DNA from: Oscillospiraceae bacterium
GTDB lineage: Bacteria; Bacillota; Clostridia; Oscillospirales; Oscillospiraceae
NCBI GenBank assembly: GCA_017519005.1
Contig: JAFWTG010000060.1
Coordinates: 1-57,613, forward strand
Direction of reading: 5' to 3'
Length of the DNA stretch: 57,613 nt
In this document: piece by piece, positions 6,635 through 37,600 of the stretch
Numbering within the stretch: the first letter of the stretch is position 1
Layout: every line of letters starts with the position of its first letter
Notes under the pieces: generated by a model
The model's database searches: none
Told to the model about the DNA's origin: nothing
The model's input: the letters and a program-made list of their open reading frames with translations, nothing else
Made by a program: the position numbers and the translations under genes

Positions 6635-7465
6635 ATGTTTCAGGATTTGGACGTTCGATATGACAACGCCTTTCGGCGCGCGGCGCCGGAGGCGGCGGAT
6701 ACCGCCCTGCTCTTTCGGGAGGACGCGGTGCTGGCCCGGTCCGCGGACGGACGGCTGGGCCTCCCCGGCTTCGGCGCGCTGCCGGAGCGCCTGCGGGCCC
6801 GGCCCTGGCGCTATGCCTTTTCTCTGGGAGCGGCGCGGTTCTTCCTGGCGGACGCCGCCGACGCCGCGCCGGAGCTTCCGGGCTTCGCTTGGGTCCCCTC
6901 CAGGGAATATCGGGGCATGGGGCCCAAGGAAGCAGTCTTCGCCGCCGCCGTGGGCGAGAGCCTGCACCGCTGGTACGGCGCCAACCGCTTCTGCGGCCGC
7001 TGCGGCGCGCCCATGGCGGACAGCGAGACCGAGCGCGCCAGGGTCTGCCCGGCCTGCGGCCTGACGGTCTACCCCAAAATCTGTCCCGCCGTCATCGTAG
7101 CCGTCACCAACGGAGACCGGCTGCTGCTGACGAAGTATCAGGGCCGGGCCTTCAAGCGCTACGCCCTGGTGGCGGGCTTCAACGAGATCGGAGAATCCAT
7201 CGAGGACACGGTTCGCCGGGAGGTCCTGGAGGAGACCGGGCTGCGGGTGAAGGGGCTGCGCTTTTACAAATCCCAGCCCTGGGTCTTCACCGACAGCCTG
7301 CTGATGGGCTTTTACTGTGCGCTGGACGGCAGTGACAGGATCAAGCTTCAGGAGACGGAGCTCTCCGAGGCGAGCTGGTATCCCCGGGCGGAAATTCCGG
7401 GGGACTACTCCTCCATCAGTCTCACCGGCGAAATGATCGAGCGCTTCCGGCGCGGAGAACAATAA
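6635..7465 (+). CDS. nudC: NAD+ diphosphatase (NADH pyrophosphatase), Nudix family
   Basis: Zinc ribbon CGRCGAPMADSETERARVCPACG, Nudix box GFNEIGESIEDTVRREVLEETGL and the NudC-specific SQPWVFTDS motif are all present. Confidence 0.85.
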   Translation: MFQDLDVRYDNAFRRAAPEAADTALLFREDAVLARSADGRLGLPGFGALPERLRARPWRYAFSLGAARFFLADAADAAPELPGFAWVPSREYRGMGPKEAVFAAAVGESLHRWYGANRFCGRCGAPMADSETERARVCPACGLTVYPKICPAVIVAVTNGDRLLLTKYQGRAFKRYALVAGFNEIGESIEDTVRREVLEETGLRVKGLRFYKSQPWVFTDSLLMGFYCALDGSDRIKLQETELSEASWYPRAEIPGDYSSISLTGEMIERFRRGEQ

Positions 7466-7494: not shown

Positions 7495-8463
7495 ATGAGC
7501 GTACTGCTGCTGGGAAACGGCGTCAATCAGCTGGAGGGGCTTGCCCCCGGCTGGGACGGACTGCTGAAGCAGATCGCGGCGAAGCACGGCTGCAAATCGG
7601 ACGCCAGCCTCTCCAACATTTTGGGCTACGAGATGCTGGAGCAGCAAATCCTGCGGAACGACCCCAAGGCGACGGTGCGCAGCGTCCGTCAGAGCATCGC
7701 GGACGGTGTGCAGACGAAGGCGCTGCTGGAGAAGCGGGACTGGAGCGGCAGCGTCCACGCGAAGCTGACGGCCCTGCCGGTGAACACGATTCTGACCACC
7801 AACTACGACTACGCGCTGGAGCGCTCGCTGGACGCCGGCTTCCAGCCCGTGCGCTTCAGCACGGAGACCACCTACAGCCTGCGCCGCTTCCACGACGCGG
7901 GCGGCAAGCGCGTCTTCCACGTCCACGGCGAATGCGAGAAGCCGAACTCCATCTGCCTCGGCTACGAGCACTACGCCGGGACGCTGCAGAAGATCCGCGA
8001 GCAGATCGTGCTCTCCACCGGCAAGACGATGCCGGGGAAGGGCTACAGCTTCCAGCTGGCGGACATCCTCCACGGCCTCACGGAGAAGCCCGCCGACAGC
8101 TGGATCTACGACTTCTTTCTGGAGGACGTCTATATTCTGGGTCTGAGTCTGGACGTCTCGGAGCTGGACCTCTGGTGGCTGCTCTCCTACCGCTCCAAGC
8201 AGCGCACGGCCGGGCGGCTGCCGATTGAAAACCGCGTCGTATTTCTCGACACCGGCCGCGACGAGGTCAAGGACGAGCGCCCGGACTGCGCAAGAAGCGA
8301 CTGCGGCTATCGGAAGCGCGCCCTCAACGCCCGGCGGGAGGAGCGCCGCAGGAAGCGGGCTCTGCTGGACAGCTTCGGCGTGGAATACGTCATGTGCGCC
8401 GGCGACAGCTTCCCCGCCCAGTACGACGACGCCCTCCGCCGCCTGAAGAAGCTCTGCCTTTAA
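7495..8463 (+). CDS. SIR2-like (SIR2_2 family) domain protein, stand-alone
   Basis: LLLGNGVNQLEGLAPGWDGLL, ILTTNYDYALERS, VFHVHGE and VYILGLSLDVSELDLWWLL reproduce the SIR2_2 motif order. The RBS is AAAGGAGGG. The gene starts 29 nt after nudC. Confidence 0.75.
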   Translation: MSVLLLGNGVNQLEGLAPGWDGLLKQIAAKHGCKSDASLSNILGYEMLEQQILRNDPKATVRSVRQSIADGVQTKALLEKRDWSGSVHAKLTALPVNTILTTNYDYALERSLDAGFQPVRFSTETTYSLRRFHDAGGKRVFHVHGECEKPNSICLGYEHYAGTLQKIREQIVLSTGKTMPGKGYSFQLADILHGLTEKPADSWIYDFFLEDVYILGLSLDVSELDLWWLLSYRSKQRTAGRLPIENRVVFLDTGRDEVKDERPDCARSDCGYRKRALNARREERRRKRALLDSFGVEYVMCAGDSFPAQYDDALRRLKKLCL

Positions 8464-8559: not shown

Positions 8560-11500
8560 TCAGATCGTCGCGCCGTTTTGCCGGAGCATCTCCCGGAGGC
8601 TGTCGGTCAGGTCTGCCTCCGAAAAATCCCGGCCGAAGACGTCCGCCTCCATTGCCTCCAGCTTGCAGACACAGGCGCCGCGCTCCAGGTCCCAGATTCG
8701 CAGCGTCATATCCGAGGAGCCGCTGATAAGCTGTCCGTTCGGGAACCAGCCCTCCGGCAGCACGGCGATACAGCGCACCCAGTCGGTATGGCCCTCGAGC
8801 TGCCCGCACTCCTCGCCGCTTTCCGCGTCCCACAGGTGCAAACGCCTGTCGTCGCCGCCGCTGACCAGCATGCGCCTCCCGTCCCGGACGAGCAGCCGCA
8901 CGCTGCGCAGATTGCCCTGCGCTTCTGCGCAGATGACGTTTACGCTCCGCTTCGGATGCCGCAGATCCCAGATCGCGATCTTTTCGTCGCGGCTGCAGCT
9001 CACAAGCAGATTCTCGCCGTCCGTATCCAGACAGTTGATGTAGCGCTCATGTTCCTTCGGCATCCTGATCTGACAGCGCAGCGTCTCTCCGCGGGACAGC
9101 TTCTCCAGATCCCACAGCAGCAGATTGCTGCCGGCTGAGGCCGCGATCCACCTGCCGCCGATCGCGGCGACGGAATCGACGCCGTCCGCTTCCTCGGTGT
9201 CCCGGCCAGGCAGCACCTGATCGCACCACTCGTTCTGCCGCAGCTCCCAGAGCTTCACGCGCTTGTCCCCGGAGCCCGTGACGAAGCTGCCGTCGGCGCG
9301 TACGGCGACGCTGGTCACCGCTCTGTCGTGCGCGGCGGGGATCCGCTGCACCGGCTCGCAGCAGTCCGGCGACCACAGCATCACGCTGTGATCCTTGGAC
9401 GCGCTGACGATTCGCTCCTCCTGCCGCTCCGGCTCATAGAAGCGCTCCACCGCGAGAATCCATCTGGAGTGACCGTCCGCCGGCTCCGCCGGAAGAATCC
9501 GCTCGCATTCCCGCCTGTCCAGATTCCAGATCCGGATTTTCCTGTCCCAGGAGCAGGCGGCGACGCGGTGCTTCGAAAGCACCGTGACGTCCGTGATCGC
9601 GCTGGAACGGCCGTACATGGTCTGCAGGCAGCGTCCGGAGGAGGGATTCCAGACTCTCAGGCTCCGGTCCTGGGCGCCGGTCACACACTGTCCGTTCGGC
9701 AGGATCGCGGCGCATCGCACCTTGTCCTCATGGCCGGGCAGCGCACGCCGCATCCGATTGTCCGTGCCCCAGAGCTCCGGCGTTTTATTGCCCAGGCAAA
9801 GCAGGTAGCAGTCCTTCAGCTCCGCAGGGCAGTCCCTGGCCTGTCCGAAGGCGACGAAGCAGTTGACCGGGCAATTTTTTTCGGAGGGTTCCCGGACTGT
9901 TTCCGGGCGCGGATCGGAGAGGCCGCATACCGCGACCCCGCCGCCGCTGTCTCCCACCAGGATCCGATCATTCCTCCCGTTCGGAAGCAACGCCAGACGC
10001 GTAATTCTCTTCTGCGCTTTCAAAAGCTCCCGTTTATGACAGCTCCGGTCCCAGGCGATCAGCTTGCCCGTTTCGTCCGCGCTGACGATGGTACTGGCAT
10101 GCTTGTCGTCTCCGTTTGGGGTGCAGACGACGTCCGTGATCGCGCCGCAGTGTCCCGTCAGCGCGGCGCGGGCGGGCGTTCCGTTTCTGTTCCAAAGCTG
10201 AATGGTCCCGGCCTTTGTCCCGCAGACGAGCCGATAGTCGAGATCGTCCTCGTCGTCCGGGTCTCCGCAGCGCAGCACCGCCAGCGCGGTGATCGCGCTG
10301 TCGTGCCTGGCCGGGCTTTTCCAGAGCGCCTCGTCCCGGTTTGGGTCCCAGAGCTGAAGACTCCCGTCCTGCGCGCTGCTGGCGATTTTTCCGTCCGGAA
10401 GCGCTATGACCGCGCTGATCGGTCCCGTGTGTCCGGCCAATCTGCGGACGAGCTGGCCCGTTCTGGCATCCCACACCCGGAGCAGGCCGTCGTCGGCGCC
10501 GTTAACGATCAGCGTACCCTTTCTCTTCGTTGGCGCCAGCGCCATACACCCGCAGCGAATAACCGTCTCCGCCGCGTCATGCTCCGTCCGGTCTGTCAGC
10601 AGCGCGACCCGCTGCCCGGTGGTGAGGTCCCAGATGCGAAGGGTCCCGTCGTAGGCGGCGGTGACGCAGCGATGTCCGGGCAGGGCGGCGACGCAGCTGA
10701 TGGTGCCGCTGTGTCCGGGGCCGCGGAAGGTCTCCTCGCTGAGCCTGGTCATGGCGGAATGCGCAGGGTTTCGGAACAGCCGCATATCCGCCTCCGCCGT
10801 GCTGCAATATCGGCTCAGGCTCAGGCTGCGCAGGTCCATATAGGAAAAGTTCAGGCCCGCGTCCCTGTCCGCAAGGCCCTTCTGGATCTGAATCCGTCTG
10901 AGCTCCAGCAGATTATACAGCAGGGTCTCGGCGCGCTGTTTTTGCTCCCATTGCTCCGCGCTGAGCGTCTGCTCGTCCGACCAGAGCTCGGCGTTTCGCT
11001 TCCAGAACAGACGGTTCGCTGTCCAGATTGCCTGAAATACGTTCTTCGGCATCAGCTCGGCGGCGTATTCCAGCGCCTCCTTCGGGATATGCTCCTGCCA
11101 CAGCGCGGGAATCTGATCGAGCTTTTTGCCGTCCTCCGGCAGCTCCATTTCCACCTGATTGACCAGATGGATCCCGGCCAGACAGTCGCGGAAATGCTCA
11201 TGGACAAATTGGAATACGGCTTTTCCGTTTTTTGGCAGCAGCAGCCCTGTATCGTACAGGACCCGATTCTCCCATTCCGCATGGTCCTCCGGGTCGATCC
11301 GCGGGCGCGCGCTGTGCGTTCTCCTGGACTCGTAATGGCTCCAAAGTCCCCGCAGGTGCAGGGGCAGCTTATCCGGGTCATAGGCGCGAAGCGCCTGCTC
11401 GATCGTCCTCGCGGCGGAGGCCTTGTCGATTCTGTACGGATCGTTCCCGAGCATCCAGCACGCCAGCTCCGGCAGGAGATAGTCGAAGGCGAAGGAATAA

Positions 11501-12771
11501 TGGACGATCCACTTCTCCTTGTCCGCCTCTTCGCACACCATGTCGCTGTTCCGGCGCAGCAGCTCCCGCTGGAAATAGTTCCAGATTAGGGCGCCGCGGC
11601 TCTCGGGATTGCGGACGGAAAGCTGGTAGCCGCAGGGAAGCGGCGGCAGCTTTGCCGTTGTGATGTACAGATTCAAAAACAGCGGATAACACAGGATCTC
11701 CCACAGCGGAGAGTCCTCCTTCGGGATCCTGACCAGATCGCGGGGATATTCCTTCAGACAGGCCCGAACCGTTTCCCGATTGAGCGGCTCCAGCCTGATC
11801 CGAAGGATTTCATCCCGGCCGCCGGGATCGAACACCTCGGAAAAGCCGGCGTCTCCGAGGGGACGCGAGGAAAACACGAGCTGCACGCCGCGGTGCTCGC
11901 TCCATCTTCGGACGCATTCCAAAACGCTCCGCCGAACGTCCTCCTGCACCTCGTTCACGCCATCGAGCAGGATCAGCATTTGGGGCCGGTCCGTCCACTC
12001 CTGCTCGGAAAGCCGCAGGATTCCGTCCTTGCAGCGCTTATATTTCTTTTCGAGATAGTCTTCCAGCTCCGGCGACTGTTTCTTTTTGAACAGATAGTCC
12101 AATTCGCACAGGGAGATATAGACCGCGGGAATCGGCGGCTCTCCCCCGGGCGAAACGATGCTGAACAGGGCCACGGTCTTTCCACTGCCGCCCTCGCCCT
12201 CGATCAGAACGACCTTCTTCTCGCCCCTCGCCCAGCTCTCCCGGATGATCCGCCACACCGGGCTGACACTGTCCTCCCCCTTCAGATGTCCAAAGGAGGT
12301 CTGCTCCGCAATCTTCATCAGGGCAAAACTGGGGTGGTTCTTCCGGCATGCCGTCAGGCACTCGTTCAACTTCTTGATGAGCGCTGCGTCCGCCGGAAGC
12401 GTCGAAGCACCGGTATTCAGGCCTCGGATTTCCCGCCTCGCGGCGTCCTCCGCCTGTCTTTTCCACTCCTTCAGCAGCTCAACTGTATAAATCTGATCAT
12501 TATCGATTATATGGGCGCAGCATTGGCATAGCCAGATCCCGTTTTCCGCCGACGCCCGCTCCTTCGCGGTCATGGTGAGGTCGTATCTTGGCCCGCCCTC
12601 CGCGGCAGCGCAGATATGGGCCGCTACGCCGACATTCGTGGCCTTTTCGGGATCGCTGTTCGGACCGCTCGTACCGATTCTGCATTCCGGATTGCTGCAG
12701 CGGTATCCGGCCCGCTTTGCAAGCACCTCTTTGACACTCGGAAGAAAATCATCCCGATTGTTTCGCTTCAT
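8560..12771 (-). CDS. NLR-like STAND NTPase: N-terminal HNH nuclease, NACHT NTPase, C-terminal WD40 repeat array
   Basis: The start MKRNNRDDF (ATG 12769-12771) follows GAAAGGAAG. The HNH-like motif is AAHICAAAEGGPRYD...NGIWLCQCCAHIIDND. Walker A is LIEGEGGSGKTV (about 12175-12200) and Walker B is MLILLDGVNEV. There are more than 12 WD40 units, e.g. GHSGTISCV...DGTLRIWD and GHTGPISAV...DGSLQLWD. Confidence 0.85.
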   Translation of the reverse strand: MKRNNRDDFLPSVKEVLAKRAGYRCSNPECRIGTSGPNSDPEKATNVGVAAHICAAAEGGPRYDLTMTAKERASAENGIWLCQCCAHIIDNDQIYTVELLKEWKRQAEDAARREIRGLNTGASTLPADAALIKKLNECLTACRKNHPSFALMKIAEQTSFGHLKGEDSVSPVWRIIRESWARGEKKVVLIEGEGGSGKTVALFSIVSPGGEPPIPAVYISLCELDYLFKKKQSPELEDYLEKKYKRCKDGILRLSEQEWTDRPQMLILLDGVNEVQEDVRRSVLECVRRWSEHRGVQLVFSSRPLGDAGFSEVFDPGGRDEILRIRLEPLNRETVRACLKEYPRDLVRIPKEDSPLWEILCYPLFLNLYITTAKLPPLPCGYQLSVRNPESRGALIWNYFQRELLRRNSDMVCEEADKEKWIVHYSFAFDYLLPELACWMLGNDPYRIDKASAARTIEQALRAYDPDKLPLHLRGLWSHYESRRTHSARPRIDPEDHAEWENRVLYDTGLLLPKNGKAVFQFVHEHFRDCLAGIHLVNQVEMELPEDGKKLDQIPALWQEHIPKEALEYAAELMPKNVFQAIWTANRLFWKRNAELWSDEQTLSAEQWEQKQRAETLLYNLLELRRIQIQKGLADRDAGLNFSYMDLRSLSLSRYCSTAEADMRLFRNPAHSAMTRLSEETFRGPGHSGTISCVAALPGHRCVTAAYDGTLRIWDLTTGQRVALLTDRTEHDAAETVIRCGCMALAPTKRKGTLIVNGADDGLLRVWDARTGQLVRRLAGHTGPISAVIALPDGKIASSAQDGSLQLWDPNRDEALWKSPARHDSAITALAVLRCGDPDDEDDLDYRLVCGTKAGTIQLWNRNGTPARAALTGHCGAITDVVCTPNGDDKHASTIVSADETGKLIAWDRSCHKRELLKAQKRITRLALLPNGRNDRILVGDSGGGVAVCGLSDPRPETVREPSEKNCPVNCFVAFGQARDCPAELKDCYLLCLGNKTPELWGTDNRMRRALPGHEDKVRCAAILPNGQCVTGAQDRSLRVWNPSSGRCLQTMYGRSSAITDVTVLSKHRVAACSWDRKIRIWNLDRRECERILPAEPADGHSRWILAVERFYEPERQEERIVSASKDHSVMLWSPDCCEPVQRIPAAHDRAVTSVAVRADGSFVTGSGDKRVKLWELRQNEWCDQVLPGRDTEEADGVDSVAAIGGRWIAASAGSNLLLWDLEKLSRGETLRCQIRMPKEHERYINCLDTDGENLLVSCSRDEKIAIWDLRHPKRSVNVICAEAQGNLRSVRLLVRDGRRMLVSGGDDRRLHLWDAESGEECGQLEGHTDWVRCIAVLPEGWFPNGQLISGSSDMTLRIWDLERGACVCKLEAMEADVFGRDFSEADLTDSLREMLRQNGATI

Positions 12772-12834
12772 TTCACTTGCTTCCTTTCGTCGTTTCGGCT
12801 CCCCGAAACAGATCATAAATTGCAGCTCACTGAT

Positions 12835-12863
12835 ATTCTATACGAATGACTGCTTTTTTTCAA
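12835..12863 (-). promoter_or_regulatory. sigma-70-type promoter for the NACHT gene (TTGAAA-17 nt-TAGAAT on the minus strand)
   Basis: The reverse complement of 12858-12863 is TTGAAA and that of 12835-12840 is TAGAAT, with an exact 17-nt spacer. The site lies in an AT-rich stretch about 65 nt upstream of the start codon. Confidence 0.5.
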
Positions 12864-12931
12864 CAAAAAAATCCGCAAAACAATCAGCAAATTTGTAAAA
12901 CATCACGTCTGTTATCCAGCCAGTCCCTCCG

Positions 12932-12970
12932 AAAAAATCCGCCCGCCCCCCGGCGGGGACGGGCAGTTTT
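12932..12970 (-). terminator. rho-independent terminator downstream of the ROCO gene (bidirectional shape)
   Basis: GCCCGCCCC/GGGGACGGGC forms a stem with one bulge and a 5-nt loop (12941-12964). It is flanked by A6 (12932-12937) and T4 (12966-12969), so the minus-strand RNA ends hairpin-UUUUUU. Confidence 0.6.
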
Positions 12971-13114
12971 CGATATTCGTCGGAACGTGGAAACAGTGGA
13001 TCGCCGGCAAGCGGTGCGGCAGTCCAACTCCAAATTTTTTCGCAATCAGGGTACCGTCAGACAACTCGCTGCTCCGGGTTCTTTTCTCGTTGAACGGAAT
13101 CGGAAGCGTGATGG

Positions 13115-16101
13115 TCATTCCTCCGTCTGGTACTCCTCCAGCAGGCGCAGCACCTTCGGAGCCATTCGGGCGGCGTGGAGGTGCCAGGCCATCAGCGAGA
13201 AGGGGTCCGTGCAGTTGCTCTTGTCCAGGTTGCAGCTGCGGTGGGCAGGGAAGTAGTTTTCCAGGTAGTCCGGCTTCGCCGTGACGAAGCCGTGGTCGTT
13301 GAGATACTTCACGTACTCCGCCAGCTCCGGCCTCTCCCGGTATCTGGAGGGGAAGATGTGATCGACCTCCATCTCCCGATAGTTCCGGATCGGATTGTTG
13401 CAGTAGGGGCAGACGCCGTTGTAGGCCTCGAAGAGGGCCTTCCGCAGCGCCTGGTTGTCCTTGGAGAAGCGATGATACACGGCGGGCAGGATTTGAACCA
13501 CGATGGCCTTGTTTTCCACGCGGATTCCCTTGATGATCCGGCTCTCGTAGAAATCGCCCAGCAGGTCCGCGGCGTCGCGCTCCTCGCCGCTGACGTTGCC
13601 GTAGACCTTGCTGCCGCGCTCCGACGCCCGCAGCAGGCTGACGACGGAATACTGATCCTCCCCGTCCACGATGACCTCGGAGGCCGTCAGGCCCAGCTCG
13701 CCGTTGATGCGCAGGAGCTCGTCCCGCAGCCGGAGGAAGATGACGGAGGCGGGCCGCGCCGGATCGGCCCAGAGGTCGATCCGCAGGGTCTCGTCGTCGT
13801 CCATGCGCACCTGGACCCGGGGGCCCTCGCTGTGGGCCAGGAGCAGGCCACGCAGCCAGCAGTGATCCACGGAATAGTCGTTCCGCATGCAGCGGATCAT
13901 CAGCCGGTGAATCACGTTGTCCGGCAGATAGCTGTATTTCAGCCGGTACTGCACGCAGCGAAGCCCCTCGCCGGGCTCCTCCAGCGCCTCCGGGGGAGAT
14001 TTGGTGGGGCAGAGCGCCGGGAAGAACAGGGTATCCGCGTCCAGTCGGTAGCAGAGCTTGTGGAGCACGGCCACGTCCAGAACGTAGGCGCACTCCTCCG
14101 GCCGGTAGACGATTTCCGGGACGGTGCGGCGGTAATCCCGCTCCCGAATTCTCTTCGGGGCCTCGCCGCAGAGCAGCTCGACGATCTGCTCCGCGCGGAT
14201 GCGGCCCTCGACGGCGCGGCTCATGCCCTCCTCGATGACGGCGTAGATGGCGTTGGTGAGCCAGACGGGGTTGAGCAGGCGGTAATCCGCCAGCTCCCGC
14301 CTGTTTTCGTCCCGGTGGTAGCTGAAGCAGACGCCCAGGCTGTTGAAGTAGGCCAGCAGAGCCGGGGCGTCGTCGTCCTCGACGCCGTTGGCCGCGCAAA
14401 GAGCGTGATAGCGCTCCCGGGTCAGGTAGTTCCGGCCCCGGCTCTCCGCGGCGATGGCGTCCCGGACCGCCTTCCACCTGCGGTTCTCCTTCCGCCTGCA
14501 GCCCTCGGAGCTCGCGGCGATCTCCACCAGGGGCTCCATGAGCTCTTCCCGGAAAACCCGGTCCTCCGCCTCCTTGGCCGAGACGCAGGCCCCCTTCGGA
14601 TCATGGGGAAGTCCTTTTTCAGGCGGGACTCGTCCAGCACGCGCAGGCCGTTGTCGTTGTCCCAGCAGTTGACGAAGAGCAGGATGGGCGATTTGGGGGC
14701 AAAGGCCGTCACGTTGCGCAGCCAATAGCGGGCCCGCTCGTCGGCCTTGGTCTCCCGGCTCTTCACCGTGACCACGTAGCAGCTGTCCTCGGAGAGGAAG
14801 CAGCGGTGCATGGAGTGGAGCAGCTGCTGGCCGCCGAAGTCCCAGAAGTGGAGGGTGTAGTCCTCCCCCTCCCAGGGAACCGTCTCGTCCAGAATCTCCA
14901 CGCCCGGCGTCTCGGAAACGTCGTAAGGCTCCGCCGCCGTCTCCCTTCGGCCGCCGCTGCGGAAGCGCCGGATGGTGTAGCTCTTGCCGGAGGCCCCGTC
15001 CCCCAGGAAAATGACCCGGCACTCCCGGAGGGGCTGCAGCGCGTCCTCCTCGTAGAGGCCGCGGATCAGCTCCGGATCGTTTTGCAGGAAGACGCTCAGG
15101 TCCTGCTCCGTCAGGGTGACGCTGCGGAGGTTGACGCCGGACTCCTCGGAGGAGAAGCCGCCGTCCCGGAATCGCAGCCCCTTCAGCGCCAGGGAACGCG
15201 GGATGGAGGGGAGGGTCAGGCCGGAGAGCGAAAGATTCTCCAGGGCCGGCAGCTGGCCGATCCACGCCGGGAGCCGCGTGACGCCGGAGCGGCCCAGCCA
15301 GAGGGCGCGCAGACTGGAGAGCTTCGCGACGCAGTCCGGAAGCTCGGTGAGCTTCGTCCGGTTGAGGTACAGCTCCCGCAGAGCGGCCAGCTGCCCGAAG
15401 GACGCCGGCAGGGCGGCGAGGGGCGCGCTGTCCAGGTCCAGCTTTTCCAGATTGGCAAGCTGCCCAAAGGAATCCGGCAGAGCGGTGATTTGCGTGTCGC
15501 TGAGGTCCAGGCTTTCCAGATTGGCAAGCTGCCCGAAGGACTCCGGCAGGGTGGCGATTGGTGTGTTGTAGAGGTACAGGGTTTGCAGATTGGCAAGTCG
15601 CCCGAAGGACTCCGGCAGGGCGGTGATTGGCGTGTAGCTGAGGGAAAGCCATTGCAGCCCGGCAAGCCGCCCGAAAGAATCCGGCAGGGCGGTGATGGAG
15701 CTGTTGTGAAGCGACAGCCATTGCAGCTTGCCAAGCTGCCCAAAGGACTCCGGAAGGTCTGTGATTCGCGTGTCGCTGAGGGACAGGCTTTGCAGATTGG
15801 CAAGCTGCCCAAAGGACTCCGGAAGGTCTGTGATTCGCGTGTCGCTGAGGGACAGGCTTTGCAGATTGGCAAGCTGCCCGATGGATTCCGGCAGGGTGGT
15901 AATTGGGGTACCGCTGAGGTCCAGCGTCTGCAGCTTGACCAGCAGTCCGACGGATTGCGGGAGGAAGCTGATTCCGGAGCCGCTCAGATCCAATTTCCTG
16001 CGGTTGGAAAGCATCCGGGATTCTTCCGCGCTGGGCGTATAGCCCCCGTCGACGCGGCAAAGCAATTCATAGACCGCCTTACTGCTGTATCGTTTCGCCA
16101 T
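13115..16101 (-). pseudogene. LRR-Roc-COR-HNH (ROCO-type GTPase with C-terminal HNH nuclease), interrupted by one frameshift near 14590-14620
   Basis: The frame from ATG 16101 gives about 11 LRRs of 23 aa (LxxLPESFGQLANLQxLxLSxTxI), then Roc motifs VIFLGDGASGKS (G1), FWDFGGQ (G3) and LFVNCWD (G4). That frame then degenerates into Arg/Pro-rich nonsense. The adjacent frame continues with ACVSAKEAE (G5 SAK), a COR-like region and the HNH motif CPYCNNP...EVDHIFPS...AHRSCNLDKSN, stopping at 13115. Confidence 0.8.
15721..15879 (-). repeat. near-perfect 69-bp tandem duplication inside the LRR array
   Basis: 15733-15789 is identical to 15802-15858, and 15790-15810 recurs at 15859-15879. It encodes SLSLSDTRITDLPESFGQLANLQ twice. 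Confidence 0.9.
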
Positions 16102-16205: not shown

Positions 16206-19200
16206 TCAGACCTTGAGATTGTCGGGCTTACTCTTCCTGTTGTTCATCGTGTTGCTCTTCCTGTCATGGTCGGGCGCGAGTCGCTCGTCCAGCAGCTTGG
16301 TGACCTTGGCCGCGAAGTCGGGGAGCTTTTGCTGAAGCGAATCCGGATTCTTGAACAGGTCGAAGAGCTCCTTCATCTGCGCGGTCTCGGTTTTGTCCTC
16401 CGAGAGCCTCATGGTCGCGTTGATGGCCTGGCGCGCGGCCGCGTAGCTGTCCGTATGCAGGGCGTTGACGTTCAGGTTCACTTCCTCGCTCAGGGCGTCC
16501 TTCCCGGCCCTGATTTCCTGCGGACTATTTTTCGTCAGGAGTTTGCGCATGAGCCCCTTGGTGTCCTCGTCCAGGTCGAAATTCCAGTTGCCGGTCGCGC
16601 TGTGGAGCTCCGTCATGGCATAGGCGTCCATCAGCATCTCCCGGAGTTCGTTGCGCTTGAGCGTGCGATTCTCTCGCTGCGTATCGAAGACCTTGTTGAG
16701 CTGGCGCAAGCGGTTTCCGATGCTGAACGGCACCTCGGGATCCAGCTCCCCGTGGAACGAATCCTTGGGCTGACCGACGGAGGGCTTCTCCTGCCGCGGG
16801 TTCTGCTCGTGCGGATTCTGCTGCTGCTTCATCTCTTCGTTGGCCGCGAGTTCCTTCTGCCGGTCCTTCTCCGCCTGAACGTCCCGGATAAGCCTGGACA
16901 GCTCGTCCATGAGATTGTCCGGCTTCTTCAGTAGCCTGACGAGCCGATTCAAATAGACGGGCTCCGCTTTCCGTTCTCCCCGGGCGTTCGAGGCCTCCTT
17001 CGGATCGCCGGCCTGTCTGGGCTTTCTCTCCTCAAGGGTGCTCAGGGTCGCTCGGACGGCGTCGCGGAACAGCTGGTACTGATCCTTGTGCAGCCTCGCG
17101 TACGCGCTCGCCTCCATCAGGCCCTTGTTCTGCTGCCCGGCCGGTCCGCCCTTCAGCCGCGCGTCGCTGTCCTTATACAGGCCGGTGTCGGCTTTGGAGC
17201 GGATAAGCGTGTTCACGTTTCTGACGGCGGCGTCGGTCACCGGTTTGTCGGGGCCGCAGGCGGCGCCGAGCTCCGTTAAGGTGAAGGCGTTATACAGCGC
17301 GTCGGCAATCTTTTCGCGGCTCATGGTACGGCTCTCGTTGTCCAGATAGAGGCTGCCCTGATGGCTCAGAGCCGCCAGCACAGGCTCCATGCGCTGCTGC
17401 GGGGTGAGATACGTTACCGCGCCGGCCTTCTCCCGCACCTGTCGGTCCTGCAGCCTTTGCCGTTCCGTCAGGTTATAATGATTCAGCAGCTTGTCTGTGC
17501 GAACGGCCGCCGCCGCCTGTTTTTTGGCCGGGTAGAGCCGCTGGATGGCATCCAGCTTCCCGGGCAGCTCAGCCATATGATTCCACTGCGCCTGAAGCTT
17601 TTTGCTGATTCTCGCGGCCAGATTGTGTCTTTCCAGGCCCTTTTTGTCCAGCTTATGATTCTGATACTGCTCCTTCTTGCGGTTGGTATAGGTCACGATG
17701 GCCTGGCTGAGCGTGACGTAGCAATTCTCCAGGCTCTGCAGCTCCTCCTGGGTGGGCTTGTGGACGGGCAGGCCGGCTTTTTCCTCCTGTTTGGTGAGCG
17801 GCGCGCCGGTCAGATCGCTGTGCTGCTTGGAAAGCTTGTGGAGGGCGGTCTTGATGGCCCCATACTCCTTGGAGCTGAAGTACACGCCCTTGTCCGCATC
17901 CAGGAGCTGATTGTAGAAGCTCAGAAGCTCCCGCTCGTCCTGCCGAAGGGTGTTGCCGAGCTTGCGCAGCTCCTCCTCGCGCTTGGACTGCCTGGCCGTG
18001 TCGCACGCGCCGTCCCAGAAGCGCTTGATGGGCATGTCGTTCACGCGATCCATGGAGAGCTTGCCGTAGTCGCCGTCCGGCACTACGTGGATGCAATCGT
18101 CGGAGACCGCGTTGATATCCTTGTCCTTAAAGTATTCCGCGCCGAGTCTGATCCGGTCCTGGACCGCGTTGAGGCGGTTCACGGCCCGGTCGATCTGGAG
18201 CTCGGGCAGGCGGTACTGCTGCAGGAGCTCCTTCAGGCTATTCCCGTCCAGCGCCATCACCCGGTCGGCCATGGACTTCGGAATGGTTTTCAGCTCCTCG
18301 AGCTTTCGATTTCCGCCGAGGTCGGTGTTCATGGTGCAGCCCATAAAGCACATGCTGTTATCGACCGCCTGGATGCCGCCCAGCTCGGCGGCGCCGTTCA
18401 CCATGGACACCTGGAAGCGCAGATTGTTCCGGCTCCGGTCCGCGTTGCCGCAGATGAAGTCCAGCACCTGCAGGGCGGCCATATCCCGGACCGCGTTCTG
18501 CGCAATCCGGGAGGACCTGTCCGCCTGCAGGAGGGCGTCGCCGTCCGCCGGGTTCCTGCAGTCGGAGCCCTTGCCGTTTTCCATGAACCAGCCCTGCGCC
18601 TTCCTGCCGTTCTGCGTCACGGTAACGGGCCTGCAGGCGGCCGTCAGGGACCCGACGCCCAGCGCCTCCGCCACCGCGGACATGGCCGCGGCCCGCGCCT
18701 CCATGGGCTGGCCGGGCTGAATCTGCATGGCTTCGCACAGCTTGCCGCGGCTTATGATCCCGGCTCTGTCCAGGAGATAGCTGTCTATGTAATCGGCGTA
18801 ATCATTCTCCGCAATGTCGTGAATGAGCTTCAGCGAGATGATTTGATCGTGCGTGGCTTCCACCGCCAGATCGTCGTAGCGATGGTTGTAGGTCCAGTTG
18901 TTGAAGATCGACGCCTGATCCAGGCGCTGCATTTCCCGTATGCCGTTTTCATCCATCGACAGCAGCGCGTCGCGCACTTTCGCGCTCTTCTCGAAGTAGC
19001 CGAGGAGCACGTCGGCGTTCTGCACGTTCGGATTGTCCGGCGACTGCTGCGCCCGCTGCTTGAGCGTGTTGAGCTCCTCCGTCATGCTTCTGAGCGGCCG
19101 GTCCGGGGTGAAGACGCCGTTCACTGCGCGCCCGTCGGGCATGGTGAAGCGCAGGGTGTTGCGGGGATTCTCCTGCGTGCCCAGGTTCACCGAATTCTGG

Positions 19201-29422: not shown

Positions 29423-30826
29423 ATGAAGGACAACAAAAAAAGAACCGGCCTTCTCCGAAGGCTCTGTCTGCTCCTGACGGCGGCACTGCTCCTCTTTGGG
29501 ACCTTCGGCGCCGCGCCCCGGGCCGAGGCCGCCGAGAAGAGCCTCTCCGCGGTGCCCGGCACCTACGTCCGCTGGCGCAAGGGCCTGCCGCCCCAGGACG
29601 GCAGCTGGTACCGGGCCCTGATCATTGCCGATTACGGCTTCGGGCTCCGCTTCCTGATTCACGGCAACGAGGTGGGGCCGAATCAGTATTACGGGAACGG
29701 CGCATCCGCCGGCGACAAGCTGGTGATGGATAACCCGGGAGACGATCTGGACCGCTTCCCGGAGATCGACCTTTCCAAGGATTCCTTCTTTACCGACTCC
29801 TACCTGATGGCCCTGGCCCTGCGCTACAACAGTACGGCCGGCTCCGCCGGAAACGGCAGGGAGCCCCATTTCGGCAACGCGCCCTATTACGAGATCGCCC
29901 TGCCCAAGACCGATAAGGCCGTAGACAGCATCGGCTTCCGCTATGACCCCGCCACCCAGGTTGACAGCGACGGAGAGCCCCTTTACGGCGCAAAGATCAC
30001 CAACAATCCGACGCCCTGGTACTTCTGCGGTTACGAACACGACAGCTCCGTGGACAAGGGAAAGTACGTCATCGGCTGCCTGCGCAATCGGAACAACAGC
30101 GGCACGAACACCTATCTTTGCAGCGGAAAGGATCTGTTTCCGCCGAAAACCCATCAGAACGCTTATACCTGCTTCGCCAGCTCGGTCATATGGTGGGACA
30201 CGGATGAATTTTACGTCTACTACGGCGAGCAGATGCTGATCGACGCCGTCGCGGACAACCAGGTCATTGACGACGACGAGATCGTCAACGTCAACGGCAG
30301 CAGCTACCTGACGCTGCAGTCCGGCAGCACCCTGACCGTCAAGGACGGCGGCATCCTCTCCATCGGCAGCGGCCTGTTCAACGACGGCACCATCCGGGTG
30401 GAAAAGGGCGGTACCCTCATCGTCAAGCAGAACGCCTTCATCATGCCCTGGCAGCTGGGAAACGGCAGCGGGAATATTATCTGCGACGGCGGCGACGTGA
30501 TCATCCAGAGCGGCGGCCGCGTGGTCTGCGAGGGCGCCTCCGGCTTCAAGTTCGTGGAGGACGGCAGAACCTGCGGCACCGTCTATAACTACGGCGTCAT
30601 CGTCACCCAGGCGCTGACCATTCGCGGCAAGGCCAACGCCTTCCACAACCTGGGCGGCGTGATGCTGGGCTACCGGGTCAAGCCCGCCGAGGCCCAGGCC
30701 TTCCGGGACAGCGCGATCCACTTTTACGGTGCCTCCGCCATACTGGACGGCATGACCGCCGGCGGAATTAACGTGGACCAGGTGACGGCCGGCGTCGTCA
30801 CCGGCAATCAGGTGATACGCCCATGA
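29423..30826 (+). CDS. secreted hypothetical protein (signal peptide; Gly-rich beta-helix-like C-terminal half)
   Basis: The signal peptide is MKDNKKRTGLLRRLCLLLTAALLLFGTFGAAPRAEA. Later short repeats include GGILSIGSG, GGTLIVKQ and GGDVIIQSGG. The RBS is CAGGAGG. Confidence 0.75.
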   Translation: MKDNKKRTGLLRRLCLLLTAALLLFGTFGAAPRAEAAEKSLSAVPGTYVRWRKGLPPQDGSWYRALIIADYGFGLRFLIHGNEVGPNQYYGNGASAGDKLVMDNPGDDLDRFPEIDLSKDSFFTDSYLMALALRYNSTAGSAGNGREPHFGNAPYYEIALPKTDKAVDSIGFRYDPATQVDSDGEPLYGAKITNNPTPWYFCGYEHDSSVDKGKYVIGCLRNRNNSGTNTYLCSGKDLFPPKTHQNAYTCFASSVIWWDTDEFYVYYGEQMLIDAVADNQVIDDDEIVNVNGSSYLTLQSGSTLTVKDGGILSIGSGLFNDGTIRVEKGGTLIVKQNAFIMPWQLGNGSGNIICDGGDVIIQSGGRVVCEGASGFKFVEDGRTCGTVYNYGVIVTQALTIRGKANAFHNLGGVMLGYRVKPAEAQAFRDSAIHFYGASAILDGMTAGGINVDQVTAGVVTGNQVIRP

Positions 30827-31812
30827 AAAAATACAATTTGACGCGGCGAATCCTCGCCCTGCTCTCCGCGGCCGTCATCAGCCTCGGACTCTGCCTGCCT
30901 GCCTCTGCCACGGACGGCGGCGAGGACTATCAGGGAGATATCAACTACGTCGGAGAGGTCGATCCGGAGACGGGCTACGGCTACCACGCGCCCGATCTCG
31001 GCAGCCGGATTTCCATCACCGACACCATGCTCTACGACAGCGCGGACGGCAGATTCGTCTTCCCCATCGGCGCCAACAGCGAGCTTTCCTGCACCGCCGC
31101 CGACGGGATGCTCCTCAGCGATTCCGTGACCCTCTCCACCGTCGGAGCTCCGCAGCTGGCGGTGTATCGGAACGGGGAAGCAGTGGACCTGAGCGCGGGG
31201 AGCACCCTGCGGACGCCCGGGGAGTACACGGTTTATCTCGGCTCCTCCTCCGGGACCCGCATCTGCGGCTTTACCATCCTGCCTGCCGTCACCAACCTCA
31301 TCCACGGTTATTCCGTGCCGGAGGGCTTCGCGGTCCGGGAGGTCCTGCGCAACGGCGAGCAGCAGGGCTTCGAGCGCTACTACGCCGAAACGGAGGCGGA
31401 GGGCGAGTACGAAATCAGCACCCGCTGCCTCCAGGCCGACCGGGTCTATACCCTGCGCGTGACCATCGACCGGACCCCGCCTGCGCTCACGCTCAGCGGC
31501 AACGTGGGCGAGGACGGACGGGTGCGCGGCCCGGTGACGATCTCCGGCATCGAGGCGGATACGACCCTGAGTCTGGAGCTGGACGGCAAGGCTGAGAAGC
31601 TGACGGTCCGGGATGGGTCCGCCACGGTCCGGGACACCGGCAGCTACCGGCTCGTTGCGGTGGACGCCGCCGGAAACAGCAGCAGCTATCAGTTTACGAT
31701 TTTGCTCTATCTGGATTCCAGCGCCTTTCTGTTCGTTCTGCTGGCGCTGGCAGCCCTTGTCTCCGTGTTCCTCTACGCCCTGCGGAAGCGCAGGAAATTC
31801 AAAGTGCGCTGA
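30823..31812 (+). CDS. secreted protein with C-terminal membrane anchor
   Basis: The signal peptide ends ...LCLPASA. The C-terminus is the hydrophobic FLFVLLALAALVSVFLYAL followed by RKRRKFKVR. There is an ATGA overlap with the upstream gene. Confidence 0.75.
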   Translation: MKKYNLTRRILALLSAAVISLGLCLPASATDGGEDYQGDINYVGEVDPETGYGYHAPDLGSRISITDTMLYDSADGRFVFPIGANSELSCTAADGMLLSDSVTLSTVGAPQLAVYRNGEAVDLSAGSTLRTPGEYTVYLGSSSGTRICGFTILPAVTNLIHGYSVPEGFAVREVLRNGEQQGFERYYAETEAEGEYEISTRCLQADRVYTLRVTIDRTPPALTLSGNVGEDGRVRGPVTISGIEADTTLSLELDGKAEKLTVRDGSATVRDTGSYRLVAVDAAGNSSSYQFTILLYLDSSAFLFVLLALAALVSVFLYALRKRRKFKVR

Positions 31813-31890
31813 GCGTCCGACCGCGCCCCGTCCGCGCGGCGGGGCGGACGCGAGCCGCAAGCCGATTACGACGATGTTAGGAGCTTCCCG

Positions 31891-34644: not shown

Positions 34645-34692
34645 GGCAGGATTCCCCTCGGGAATCCAGAAAACAATCAAGGAGATCCGTAC

Positions 34693-37600
34693 ATGAAACG
34701 TTTGATACCCGGGAAAACAAAGGTACAGGTCGAACTGTTCAAGGGCGTCATGCTTGGCGACATCTTCGTCGCCGGGCTTGGCATTGCCATGCTCGTTTTG
34801 ATCCTGATTTCCTCTCTTCCGTACAAGCTGTACTTCTGTATCGCTGTGATGGGCGTGGCGGGAATCCTGCTGGTTCGTTTGGACACCGTACCGAACTATC
34901 GGTATCTGCTGCAGATCATCACGCATTACGCCTATAAACGGCGCTATGAACGCATCACCGACGACGAGCTTTTGAAATCGCGGGCGCTCGGAACGGAAAA
35001 GGCGACCAAATTTGACCGCCTGTTCAAGAACAAAGGCGACGCGGAGCAGGAGCCCGTGACCCTGAAGCCCGCGAAGCAGGAAAAGCAGGCGGCCAAGGCC
35101 TCCCGTCAGGCGGATTTGCAGAAGCGCGGGAAGCGCTCCGACAAGAAGCGCGCGAAGCAGACGCAGCCCTCCGGGGACAGGGCCAGGGCCGCGAAAAAAG
35201 CCCGGGAGGAGGAAGATCGGCTTCTCAGGAGCGACTCCGTCTCCGAGGAGGAAAAAGACGCGATCCGCGCCCGCCGCCGGGAGGAATTCGCCGCCTCCAT
35301 GCAGCGGCAGGCCCTCTCCCGGGAGGCGGAGATCAACCGCGAGGACATGAGCAAGCTGATCGGCTTCACGGGAATTCAGGACGCTTACATTGAATATAAC
35401 GGAGAATACTTCGGCGGCGTGATCGAGATCGACCCGGTGGAGTTCCGCTTCTTCAGCGAACACAGACGGGCAAATACCATTGAAAACTGCTTCGGCCGGG
35501 TCCTCCGCTCCATCCACGGGAAGTTCAGCGCCAACATCATCAAGCTGGAGCGGGCAATCAACTACGATAGCTATCTGGCCCGGGAGCGGGCAAAGCTGGA
35601 CGCTCTCCGCCAGTCCTTTGAAAGCGGCCTGCTCACGGAGGAGGAATACCAGATTCGTGTCGAGATCACCTGGGACCGCGTTCAGGAGCTGGAGGCCATG
35701 TGCGGGGAAGACAAGGTCATCGACCCCTTCTATTACCTCGCGCTGTTTGAAAGCGATAAAAAGCAGCTGGATATGATGCTGCGGGACGCGGTGATCCAGC
35801 TGGAGCAGGGCGAGCTCACCGTTCGCCGCCTGCAGGGGAGGGAGCTTGCCGTCTTCCTGAAATACACCAATCAGTTGGATTTCGACGAGCATGAGGTGGA
35901 TCAGATCCGCCCGGAGGACTACGCCCTGTGGGCGCAGCCCAACGTGGTGGACGTCTATCCGCGCCGGGTGGAGGTCAACCACATCGTGACCCACAATTTC
36001 CGGGTCGTCAGCTACCCGATGACCGTGGGAGACGCCTGGCTGGCGGGCGTGATGAGCATTCCCGGGACGAAGGTGGTCGTGAAGGCCAGACAGATGGATC
36101 GGGATAAGGCTGTCCGCACCATCGACCGCAGCCTGATGGAGCTGCGCGGACAGTGGTCCGCCACCGGCATCGACTCCAAGCGCCTGGAAATTGAGGCGCA
36201 CCTGAACACCCTGCAGGAGCTGCTGGCTACCCTGCAGGGAGACAACGAGATGCTTTTCGAGTGCAACGTGTACATCACGGCCTATGACATCATGGGGACC
36301 CGGAACAATCTCCGCATTCCCCAGCCGCCCAAATCTCTGCTGCCCAGCATCAGCAGCATGAAGAAATCGGTCCGGCGTTCCTGGCAGGAGGCGGGCTTCC
36401 GCCTGAACAACATGGAATTCGACCAGATGCGGGCCTTCCTGGGCTCCCAGGTCAGCTCCCTGGACCCGCTGGCCAAGGAGGGCCGCGGGATTCCGAGCAA
36501 TACCGTCGCGGCCAGCTTCCCCTGGATCTACGCCCATATCTCCGACGAGGGCGGCGTCCACCTGGGCCAGAGCGGCGGCGTCCCGGTCTTTATCAATTTC
36601 TTCCGCCGGGACAGTGAGCGCATCAACTCCAACATGGTCATCATCGGCAAATCCGGCTCCGGCAAATCCTACGCAACCAAATCCCTGCTGGCCAATCTGG
36701 CGGCGGAGGACGCCAAAATCTTCATTCTGGACCCGGAAAACGAATATACGGAGCTGGCCCGGAACCTGCACGGCAAGTATATCAACGTCGGCAACGCCAC
36801 CTACGGCAGACTGAATCCCTTCCATATCATCACGGCCTTGGACGACGACGAGGCGGGAACGGAGGGCCCCAGCGGGAGCTACGCCACCCATCTGCAGTTC
36901 CTGGAGGAGTTTTTCCGGCAAATCCTGCCGGACTGCGACAAGGACGCCCTGGAATACCTGAACAATATGGTCGACCGGGTCTACACGGATAAAGGGATCA
37001 CCCCGGAAACCGACCTGAGCAAGCTGCGCCCGCAGGATTACCCCGTGTTCGACGATCTCTACGAGACGATTTTTGAAGAATTCCAGAGCACGGACAATCA
37101 GTACCTTCGCACGATCCTGCGAACGCTGATGAATTACATCGCGAAGTTTTCCAGAGACGGGCGCAACGCCAATATCTGGAACGGTCCCAGCACCGTTACG
37201 ACGGATGAAAACTTCACGGTTTTCAATTTCCAATCGCTGCTGGCCAACCGCAACACCACCATTGCCAACGCGCAGATGCTTCTCGTGCTGAAATACATTG
37301 ACAACGAGATCATCAAAAACCGTGACTTCAACACCCGCTACGGCTTAAAACGCAAGATCGTGGTGGTCATCGACGAAGCCCACGTGTTCATCGACACCAA
37401 ATTCCCCGTGGCGCTGGATTTCATGTTCCAGCTGGCAAAGCGCATCCGGAAATATAACGGTATGCAGATCGTCATTACGCAGAACATCAAGGATTTCGTG
37501 GGCAGCGAGGAGATTGCCCGGAAATCCACGGCCATTATCAACGCCTGTCAGTACAGCTTTATCTTTGCCCTGGCGCCCAACGACATTCAGGACCTGGTCC

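Follow-up and report, generated by a model that had tools for sequence, protein, structure and literature searches.

We analyzed a 57,613-nucleotide contig from an Oscillospiraceae bacterium (JAFWTG010000060.1 of assembly GCA_017519005.1; hereafter the window), and report on a gene at positions 13115-16101 of its minus strand that encodes leucine-rich repeats (LRRs), a Roc GTPase, a COR region and a C-terminal HNH nuclease, an architecture that we call ROCO-HNH. Two long overlapping open reading frames (ORFs) in different frames occupy this interval: the ORF at 14422-16101 (minus strand) codes for the LRR array and most of the Roc GTPase, and the C-terminal frame (13115-16060, minus strand) codes for the rest of the ROCO protein. 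Addition of a single G at a run of five Gs (14590-14594) yields one continuous product of 995 amino acids (aa). An intact allele of 972 aa, P0001, is 99% identical to this repaired protein over Roc-COR-HNH. We ran the Pfam scan on the repaired 995-aa protein, and the gene is composed as follows.

13115..16101, minus strand: the whole LRR-Roc-COR-HNH gene, defined from the ORFs, the one-G repair and intact allele P0001; a pseudogene in the window
15184..16011, minus strand: leucine-rich repeats, aa 31-306, 12 units of 23 aa (Pfam LRR_14, 7.8e-48)
14573..15018, minus strand: Roc (Ras of complex) G domain, aa 362-510 (Pfam Roc, 3.7e-18, 66 bits)
14590..14594, minus strand: frameshift site, five-G run CGAAGGGGGCCTGCG versus CGAAGGGTGGTCTGCG in intact alleles
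14012..14482, minus strand: COR-A, aa 541-697 (Pfam, 8e-22, 78 bits against a cutoff of 35; Foldseek matches 6hlu and 3dpt)
13493..13957, minus strand: COR-B, aa 716 to ~870 (Pfam, 1.1e-5, 25.7 bits, cutoff 27)
13118..13480, minus strand: HNH nuclease domain, aa 875-995 (Pfam HNH, 1.6e-3, 19 bits; PADLOC PtuB, 8.6e-5)

Domain architecture and structural comparison

The LRR array, which also matches Pfam LRR_8 (2.9e-38), comprises eleven clear units (aa 54-306) and one weaker unit (aa 31-53), and at the DNA level appears as a 69-bp tandem repeat of 8.1 copies (15378-15937). The Pfam Roc match spans aa 362-481 and scores 66 bits against a cutoff of 27; the domain carries G1 (GDGASGKS, 367-374), the switch I threonine T398, G3 (DFGGQ, 421-425), a non-canonical G4 (NCWD rather than NKxD, 478-481) and G5 (SAK, 508-510). 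The COR-B match covers aa 716-797 and falls just below cutoff; many homologues have this family (PF25497) in their precomputed Pfam annotation, and in one relative, P0136, the match extends into the stretch aligned to aa 800-870 of the window protein. Similarly, the HNH family PF01844 is recorded in the precomputed lists of several homologues, including P0021, P0023 and P0034. In the repaired protein the HNH residues C898-x2-C901, D914-H915, N949 and H954-x2-C957-N958 are predicted to form a CCHC zinc site together with the D-H...N...N catalytic residues. A STAND NTPase was not matched in the ROCO protein by Pfam, PADLOC or NCBIfam, leaving Roc as the sole NTPase, and NCBIfam returned only sub-threshold LRR-effector matches and a weak small-GTPase match. 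Judged by its sequence, the protein is a true ROCO protein, with N-terminal LRRs and with Roc followed directly by COR-A and COR-B, and a zinc-finger HNH nuclease occupies the position of the LRRK2 kinase.

Comparison with known structures gave the same picture. When searched against the PDB, the P0001 sequence matched Chlorobium tepidum Roco (6hlu, E = 4.3e-50, aa 36-761), the Roc-COR crystal construct 3dpu (1.1e-39) and MbRoco2 (4wnr, 9.7e-37). Modeling of P0001 by AlphaFold2 with 77 homologues gave a mean predicted local distance difference test score (pLDDT) of 87.3, and the top Foldseek match of the model in the PDB was again 6hlu (E = 1.9e-32 over 869 columns), followed by LRRK1 and LRRK2. 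For a separate model of aa 800-995 of the window protein (pLDDT 86.2), the top 50 PDB matches were all HNH proteins, among them the Cas9 HNH domain, EcoKMcrA, Cap5 of CBASS and Gme, at weak E values of 0.02 or more. The LRR-Roc-COR-HNH assignment put forward in a preliminary description of this DNA is thus borne out by Pfam, by sequence matches to the PDB and by AlphaFold/Foldseek. As for the profile check suggested there, Roc and COR-A exceed their cutoffs, and COR-B (25.7 of 27 bits) and HNH (19.0 of 21.4 bits) stay below theirs.

The window copy is a recent pseudogene

The copy in the window is a pseudogene, recently inactivated by a frameshift. The lesion, a loss of one nucleotide combined with a T>C change, lies inside Roc between the G4 and G5 motifs: intact relatives read CGAAGGGTGGTCTGCGTC (R-R-V-V-C-V) where the window reads CGAAGGGGGCCTGCGTC, and at the site itself intact alleles have GGGTGGTC, which is not a homopolymer. 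In place of the full-length ROCO protein, which is not made in the window genome, one would expect an LRR-Roc fragment of 559 aa that lacks G5 and, at best, a COR-HNH fragment of 369 aa in addition. We regard the inactivation as recent because over the C-terminal 195 aa the window gene has kept 100% identity to the intact allele.

Six European Nucleotide Archive (ENA) metagenome contigs carry a truncated N-terminal product of 536 aa, P0105, and the DNA lesion is identical in both of its fetched loci, L006 and L007; the frameshift is therefore genuine and present in a circulating lineage. That the gene is intact in the organism and merely misread in assembly or sequencing, as the position of the lesion in a short homopolymer might suggest, is accordingly very improbable: sequencing error was ruled out by the six contigs with the same truncated product and by the identity of the lesion in L006 and L007, where it is linked to the T>C change and to a lineage-specific 250-bp insert. 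Nor do we think it at all likely, although slightly less far-fetched, that the gene is still expressed through -1 ribosomal or transcriptional slippage or phase variation at the five-G run, which would then act as a regulatory switch. The shift needed is indeed -1 within this run, and the downstream region, with its unchanged C-terminal 195 aa, has not decayed further, but a recent mutation explains the missing decay equally well. Moreover, intact alleles lack the homopolymer and hence any conserved slippery or contingency tract, the run is too short for efficient slippage, a canonical X_XXY_YYZ heptamer is missing, and no stimulatory structure was found, none having been sought.

Family distribution and residue conservation

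A search with the Roc-COR-HNH part of the protein returned 419 proteins, and a CxxC...D[HN] HNH signature was found within the C-terminal 220 residues in 91 of the best 120 of these matches. ROCO-HNH members fall into about 90 clusters, measure 830-1090 aa and are 40-99% identical; those with names come from Ruminococcus, Oscillospiraceae or Clostridia metagenome-assembled genomes (MAGs). Within a species-representative genome set, full-length matches were found only in rumen and gut Clostridia-type MAGs, the best being 58% identical. The distribution is patchy and the paralogues are divergent, with four loci in CAMVKI01, three in JAFPWD01 and two each in JAGABH01 and JAFXYD01. Plasmid and phage collections contained no ROCO-HNH protein, and matched only through HNH-less ROCO or LRR proteins.

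We scored residue conservation in an alignment of 95 family members. The G1 motif G-D-G-x-x-G-K-[S/T], the switch I residue T398, the W-D-F-G-G-Q motif and N478 (95/95) were invariant, G5 S-A-K was near-invariant, and G4 read N-C-W followed by E (49), D (31) or G (12), not NKxD. In the nuclease, N949 and N958 were conserved in 95/95, C898, C901 and H915 in 94/95, and D914 and C957 in 89/95, with residue 954 being His in 75 and Cys in 19 of the 95. Degeneracy of the HNH catalytic residues, named in the preliminary description as an observation that would speak against its defense reading, was thus not found, these residues being conserved in 89-95 of 95 homologues.

The closest ROCO relatives lacking HNH (P0108-P0120, 35-40% identity) have in its place either nothing or an unrelated helical tail of 135-180 aa. 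This tail is conserved, carries a KEKKxPLxR motif ahead of a helix that is amphipathic or hydrophobic, and has no recorded Pfam family; it could be an EAD-like adaptor or a membrane effector.

Hypervariable repeats and a modular HNH domain

To gauge divergence within the gene, we compared the window copy with the intact allele from strains that share 99.2% identity with the window in their flanking DNA. In the LRR region, identity to P0001 drops to 73% and the repeat number differs by one, whereas Roc and COR are each 98% and the C-terminus 100% identical. By the Nei-Gojobori method, the ratio of nonsynonymous to synonymous divergence (dN/dS) was 0.74 for the LRRs (dS 0.24) and 0.12 for the rest of the protein (dS 0.07). 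Divergence of the LRRs thus far outpaces that of the remainder of the ROCO protein, in a pattern that fits diversification with recombination or repeat conversion. The number of LRR copies varies as well, related alleles encoding 972, 995 or 1019 aa. In the window, one 23-aa unit, LANLQSLSLSDTRITDLPESFGQ, is present as an exact tandem duplication (aa 77-122, 15832-15969), which is missing from the otherwise identical P0105 of other contigs.

We searched the whole library with the C-terminal module using HMMER and obtained 188 cluster representatives. Beyond ROCO proteins, the HNH core is found at the N-terminus of nSTAND5/nSTAND3 proteins of ~950 aa, at the N-terminus of an NB-ARC-TPR protein and at the C-terminus of a SMEK_N-AAA protein. 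The occurrence of one HNH subfamily on STAND scaffolds matches what is predicted if Roc-COR replaces the STAND NTPase as switch. PADLOC found no Avs or other defense-model match in these STAND-HNH relatives.

The module also occurs in P0132, a 2413-aa LRR-Roc-COR-HNH-NACHT-pentapeptide fusion encoded by a single ORF (L091, 6001-13242) and present on 22 contigs, and in P0124. One HNH thereby sits between two different NTPase switches in P0132. This locus is flanked by DDE and IS21 transposases, and the NACHT part of the two fusions has no detectable similarity to the NACHT protein of the window.

The locus and its neighbors

In the lineage of the window, the gene order is an HTH response regulator, a LytS-type kinase, a protein of 2541-2665 aa without known domains, ROCO-HNH and an HNH-NACHT-WD40 gene, followed by a convergent SIR2/ThsA/LmuA-like gene, a NudC-type NUDIX gene and a hydrogenase cluster. 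The downstream features of the window and the contexts of homologous loci are listed below.

8560..12816, minus strand: HNH-NACHT-WD40 gene (PADLOC CBASS-type HNH effector models at aa 24-130; NACHT, 30.6 bits; WD40, 1e-64)
12786..13035, minus strand: 250-bp insert, present in the frameshift lineage only, that separates the ROCO stop codon from the NACHT gene
Loci L009, L012 and L096: ROCO-HNH in a V-ATPase/tRNA_edit/AcrB context
Locus L010: ROCO-HNH in the dnaA region
Loci L008, L093 and L095: ROCO-HNH near recG, with a PemK toxin adjoining at L095
Locus L097: P0070 (50% identical); upstream lie BrxL and a large serine recombinase, downstream SMEK_N-TPR and SMEK_N-NACHT-propeller genes

The tandem HNH-NACHT-WD40 neighbor noted in the preliminary description was confirmed by matches to PADLOC HNH models, NACHT and WD40. 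Its start at 12816 is probably placed 45 nt too far upstream; the true start is probably ATGAAGCGAAAC near 12772, with a GAAAGGAAG ribosome-binding site. The 250-bp insert carries a strong terminator-like hairpin (12966-12939, 12-bp stem) and a promoter-like TTGAAA-17-TAGAAT element (12863-12835, 10/12 match). At loci with intact alleles, the ROCO and NACHT genes lie ~100 bp apart with no promoter or terminator match between them, and the insert seems to have freed the NACHT gene from its coupling to the dead ROCO gene. We ruled out a repeated mobile element as the identity of the insert, which is unique in the window and restricted to frameshift-lineage loci.

The two genes do not always travel together. 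At L094, a 95%-identical ROCO-HNH allele occupies the same locus without the NACHT gene, the SIR2 and NUDIX genes following directly after the ROCO stop; the locus is therefore a variable hotspot and NACHT not an obligate partner. The pairing seen in the window thus stands as an adjacency but not as a fixed unit. L097 is a second, independent ROCO-HNH/NACHT adjacency, in what resembles a mobile defense island. With two independent adjacencies and one fusion, the association with NACHT is suggestive and not a general rule. Elsewhere, ROCO-HNH is a stand-alone insertion, at sites that differ among genomes.

We scanned 123 ORFs flanking 16 homologous loci with PADLOC and Pfam. They belong mainly to housekeeping families, and the few candidate defense matches are mostly of generic ABC/SMC type. 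As for the survey of defense islands suggested in the preliminary description, defense or mobile genes were seen at the window locus (NACHT, SIR2-like), L097 (BrxL, recombinase, SMEK_N-NACHT), L095 (PemK) and L091 (IS elements) and not at most other loci, so that the association with defense neighborhoods is partial. In an all-against-all BLAST comparison of the ORFs lying up to 1.5 kb from 17 loci, no small neighbor proved to be conserved. A conserved partner or immunity gene was accordingly ruled out, the sole recurrent neighbor being a homologue of the giant protein upstream, in one other MAG.

This giant ORF (2665 aa, 16206-24203, minus strand), the immediate upstream neighbor of the ROCO gene, encodes a helical, strongly charged protein with no Pfam or PADLOC match. 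Its length varies from 2541 to 2665 aa among strains, it contains acidic repeats of ~40 aa (aa 1340-1500), and by eye we noticed a motif resembling a kinase catalytic loop, FICGNADRSRNNLRF...VDNSMCF (aa 1915-1955). Homologues of 25-36% identity adjoin ROCO-HNH paralogues in another MAG (L015, 2508-4835; L021, 5391-8912). On the far side of the NACHT gene lies a SIR2_2/AbiH-like protein of 322 aa (7495-8463, plus strand; PADLOC ThsA 5e-10, LmuA SIR2 4e-9), adjoined by a NudC-type NADH pyrophosphatase with NUDIX and zinc ribbon domains (6635-7465, plus strand). The pair is kept in all related loci and may represent an NAD-centered defense or counter-measure pair. Farther away, at 29423-46484 (plus strand), large ORFs without Pfam matches (917 and 2463 aa) surround a 1466-aa HerA/TraG-type P-loop protein, a run that may be another defense, conjugation or secretion module.

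Relation to known systems

Prokaryotic proteins combining LRRs, an AP-GTPase (Roc) and COR have been predicted to be counter-invader systems by Kaur, Iyer, Burroughs and Aravind (2021, eLife, PMC8195603, Fig. 6D), in work that was computational only. The systems they describe have rapidly evolving N-terminal LRRs, many paralogues per genome and at least 24 swappable C-terminal domains, including TIR, DRHyd, caspase, trypsin, FGS, GT4 and EADs, with COR+TIR, COR+CASPASE and COR+REase7 (restriction-endonuclease-fold) combinations in their tables. ROCO-HNH shares with this class the rapidly evolving LRRs, Roc, COR, a variable C-terminal effector and multiple paralogues; it differs in occurring in gut and rumen Clostridia MAGs, whereas multicellular and filamentous bacteria are emphasized in that study. 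A text search of the supplementary tables (PMC8195603) found no AP-GTPase-COR fused to HNH. ROCO-HNH thus fits the class, the concept itself is not new, and HNH appears to be an uncatalogued effector within it. As for the novelty of a bacterial ROCO protein in defense, which the preliminary description saw in the lack of an experimental account, the idea had already been published by Kaur et al. and a Roc-COR-CHAT protein had already been purified. This protein, a Runella zeae protease, was used in a study of bacterial gasdermins (Johnson et al., bioRxiv 10.1101/2021.06.07.447441). Compared by description only, it is likewise a bacterial Roc-COR with a C-terminal effector, here one of cell death, but that effector is a caspase-like CHAT protease acting on a separate gasdermin gene, unlike HNH.

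Among structurally characterized proteins, C. tepidum Roco (CtRoco; 6hlu, 3dpu) and Methanosarcina barkeri Roco2 (MbRoco2; 4wnr) have an LRR-Roc-COR core that is alike by sequence and, for 6hlu, also by fold. The matched PDB constructs consist of this core only and carry no catalytic output domain, whereas ROCO-HNH adds HNH after COR-B; its G4 motif NCW[D/E] also sets the family apart. To our knowledge, full-length CtRoco and MbRoco2 likewise have no catalytic output domain, and their biological roles are not known. The eukaryotic proteins LRRK2, LRRK1 and DAPK1 resemble ROCO-HNH in having the stack followed by a catalytic output domain, and the P0001 model aligns with LRRK1 and LRRK2 structures at E values of ~1e-24 to 1e-28. 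They differ in that the output is a kinase instead of HNH, in their N-terminal ARM/ANK and C-terminal WD40 domains, which are missing from ROCO-HNH, and in sequence, identity being 16-18%.

The NLR-like Avs and bNACHT proteins follow the same logic of sensor repeats, NTPase switch and nuclease, and the nearest non-ROCO relatives of our HNH are N-terminal effectors of nSTAND3/5 and NB-ARC-TPR proteins. ROCO-HNH, however, uses a Ras-like GTPase with COR instead of a STAND ATPase, has its effector at the C-terminus, so that the order is inverted, and gives no Avs match in PADLOC. It is not an Avs/STAND member, as it has no STAND NTPase, but may work like one. With Septu, the similarity is limited to a weak match of ~50 residues to the PtuB HNH; ROCO-HNH lacks the PtuA ATPase partner that defines Septu, and no PtuA gene is adjacent in the window. 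Septu is reported to cleave tRNA-Tyr (PMC13096335).

Proposed function and alternatives

We read the window gene as a dead allele of a family of NLR-like nuclease sensors switched by a GTPase, and put the probability of this joint reading at about 0.6; the family is probably part of a class of bacterial immune sensors that has received little study and that exists so far only as a prediction. By analogy, the intact protein would be an intracellular NLR-like immune sensor that rests in an autoinhibited state. Its variable LRR surface would bind an invader-derived cue, most likely a phage protein, and the cue would release the autoinhibited LRR/Roc-COR conformation. The nucleotide state of Roc and the oligomeric state mediated by COR could then shift, as in C. 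tepidum Roco and LRRK2, where COR dimers cycle with the bound nucleotide and LRRs mediate autoinhibition of the C-terminal catalytic domain. This shift would activate or juxtapose the C-terminal HNH domains, and the resulting cleavage of nucleic acid would lead to abortive infection. HNH effectors such as Cap5 act as oligomers. The substrate may be DNA or possibly tRNA, given the PtuB HNH of Septu, and the adjacent HNH-NACHT-WD40 protein would be an independent second sensor in the same variable hotspot.

For the sensor-switch-nuclease design and defense role advanced in the preliminary description, LRR hypervariability, conserved residues, multiple paralogues and the sharing of HNH with STAND proteins all speak in favor, and the neighborhood evidence does so only in part. 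Several observations weigh against our reading. Defense or mobile neighbors occur at a minority of the ~20 homologous loci, and the 123 flanking ORFs at 16 loci showed no conserved partner and no clear defense enrichment. Our literature search turned up no experiments on a role of ROCO proteins in phage defense, and PADLOC has no model for an LRR-Roc-COR-HNH protein, matching it only weakly to PtuB over ~50 residues. The nuclease assignment is affected by a Pfam HNH match (aa 898-918) of 19.0 bits, under the cutoff of 21.4, and by the weak similarity of the C-terminal model to HNH folds (best E 0.02, TM-score ~0.3-0.45). Guanine specificity is not assured, because G4 reads N-C-W-[E/D/G] rather than NKxD. 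The higher dS of the LRRs (0.24 versus 0.07) points to recombination or gene conversion and not purely to positive selection. Finally, any function applies to the relatives alone, the window gene being dead. Going further, we offer only tentatively the idea that the intact proteins do serve as anti-phage sensors, their nuclease being gated by a Ras-like GTPase in place of a STAND ATPase, and that ROCO and NACHT switches can be wired together; the latter is suggested because the operon-like pairing was seen twice and the two switches are joined in the 2413-aa fusion.

Among other explanations, we consider it unlikely, if still the most serious rival, that ROCO-HNH is a GTP-regulated housekeeping or regulatory nuclease, serving DNA repair, recombination, competence or the processing of self-DNA under stress, with the LRRs as scaffold. 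Most loci do lie among housekeeping genes (V-ATPase/tRNA_edit, the dnaA region, near recG), with no conserved defense partner and few PADLOC matches among the 123 neighbors, and we know of no immune role for the characterized bacterial Roco proteins. Such a nuclease would nevertheless not be expected to have LRRs that are hypervariable between near-identical strains, multiple divergent paralogues per MAG with a patchy distribution, insertion sites that differ between genomes, or an HNH subfamily common to STAND NTPases, nor to be lost so easily by frameshift in a circulating lineage. Somewhat less probable again is a single cooperative two-sensor system of ROCO-HNH and the downstream NACHT protein. 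In its favor are the spacing of ~100 bp without a promoter or terminator match in intact strains, the 50%-identical homologue at L097 directly upstream of SMEK_N-NACHT-propeller genes, and the fusion on 22 contigs. Yet a 95%-identical allele occupies the same locus without the NACHT gene, the NACHT neighbor is missing at most homologues, the NACHT domains of fusion and window share no detectable similarity, and the window NACHT gene is intact with its own promoter-like element although the ROCO gene is dead.

We give hardly any credence to a delivered or polymorphic toxin, with the HNH as C-terminal tip on an LRR carrier directed against bacteria or host cells. HNH modules are common toxin tips, and the models of the LRR type III effectors XopAE and XopL match the LRR region; these matches, however, lie far under the family cutoffs and concern the LRRs only. 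A cytosolic Roc-COR switch placed between LRR and HNH does not suit such a toxin, the sequence showed neither a signal peptide nor a secretion domain, and a conserved small downstream immunity ORF was not found at 17 loci.

Implications

We know of no bacterial ROCO protein with an experimentally established biological role, and how LRR-Roc-COR controls a downstream catalytic domain is the central unsolved question of LRRK2 in Parkinson's disease. If the tentative idea of GTPase-gated anti-phage sensors is true, ROCO-HNH would provide a bacterial model for LRR-Roc-COR control of a C-terminal catalytic domain as in LRRK2, and a compact ROCO protein of ~970 aa with a nuclease output would make GTPase-gated activation easy to read out through DNA or RNA cleavage, toxicity or plaques. 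The window copy being dead, this value rests with the family and with the intact allele P0001, and intact copies occur in related gut and rumen bacteria. The family thereby offers a test of the 2021 prediction that Roc-COR modules are prokaryotic immune switches parallel to those of STAND/NLR proteins.

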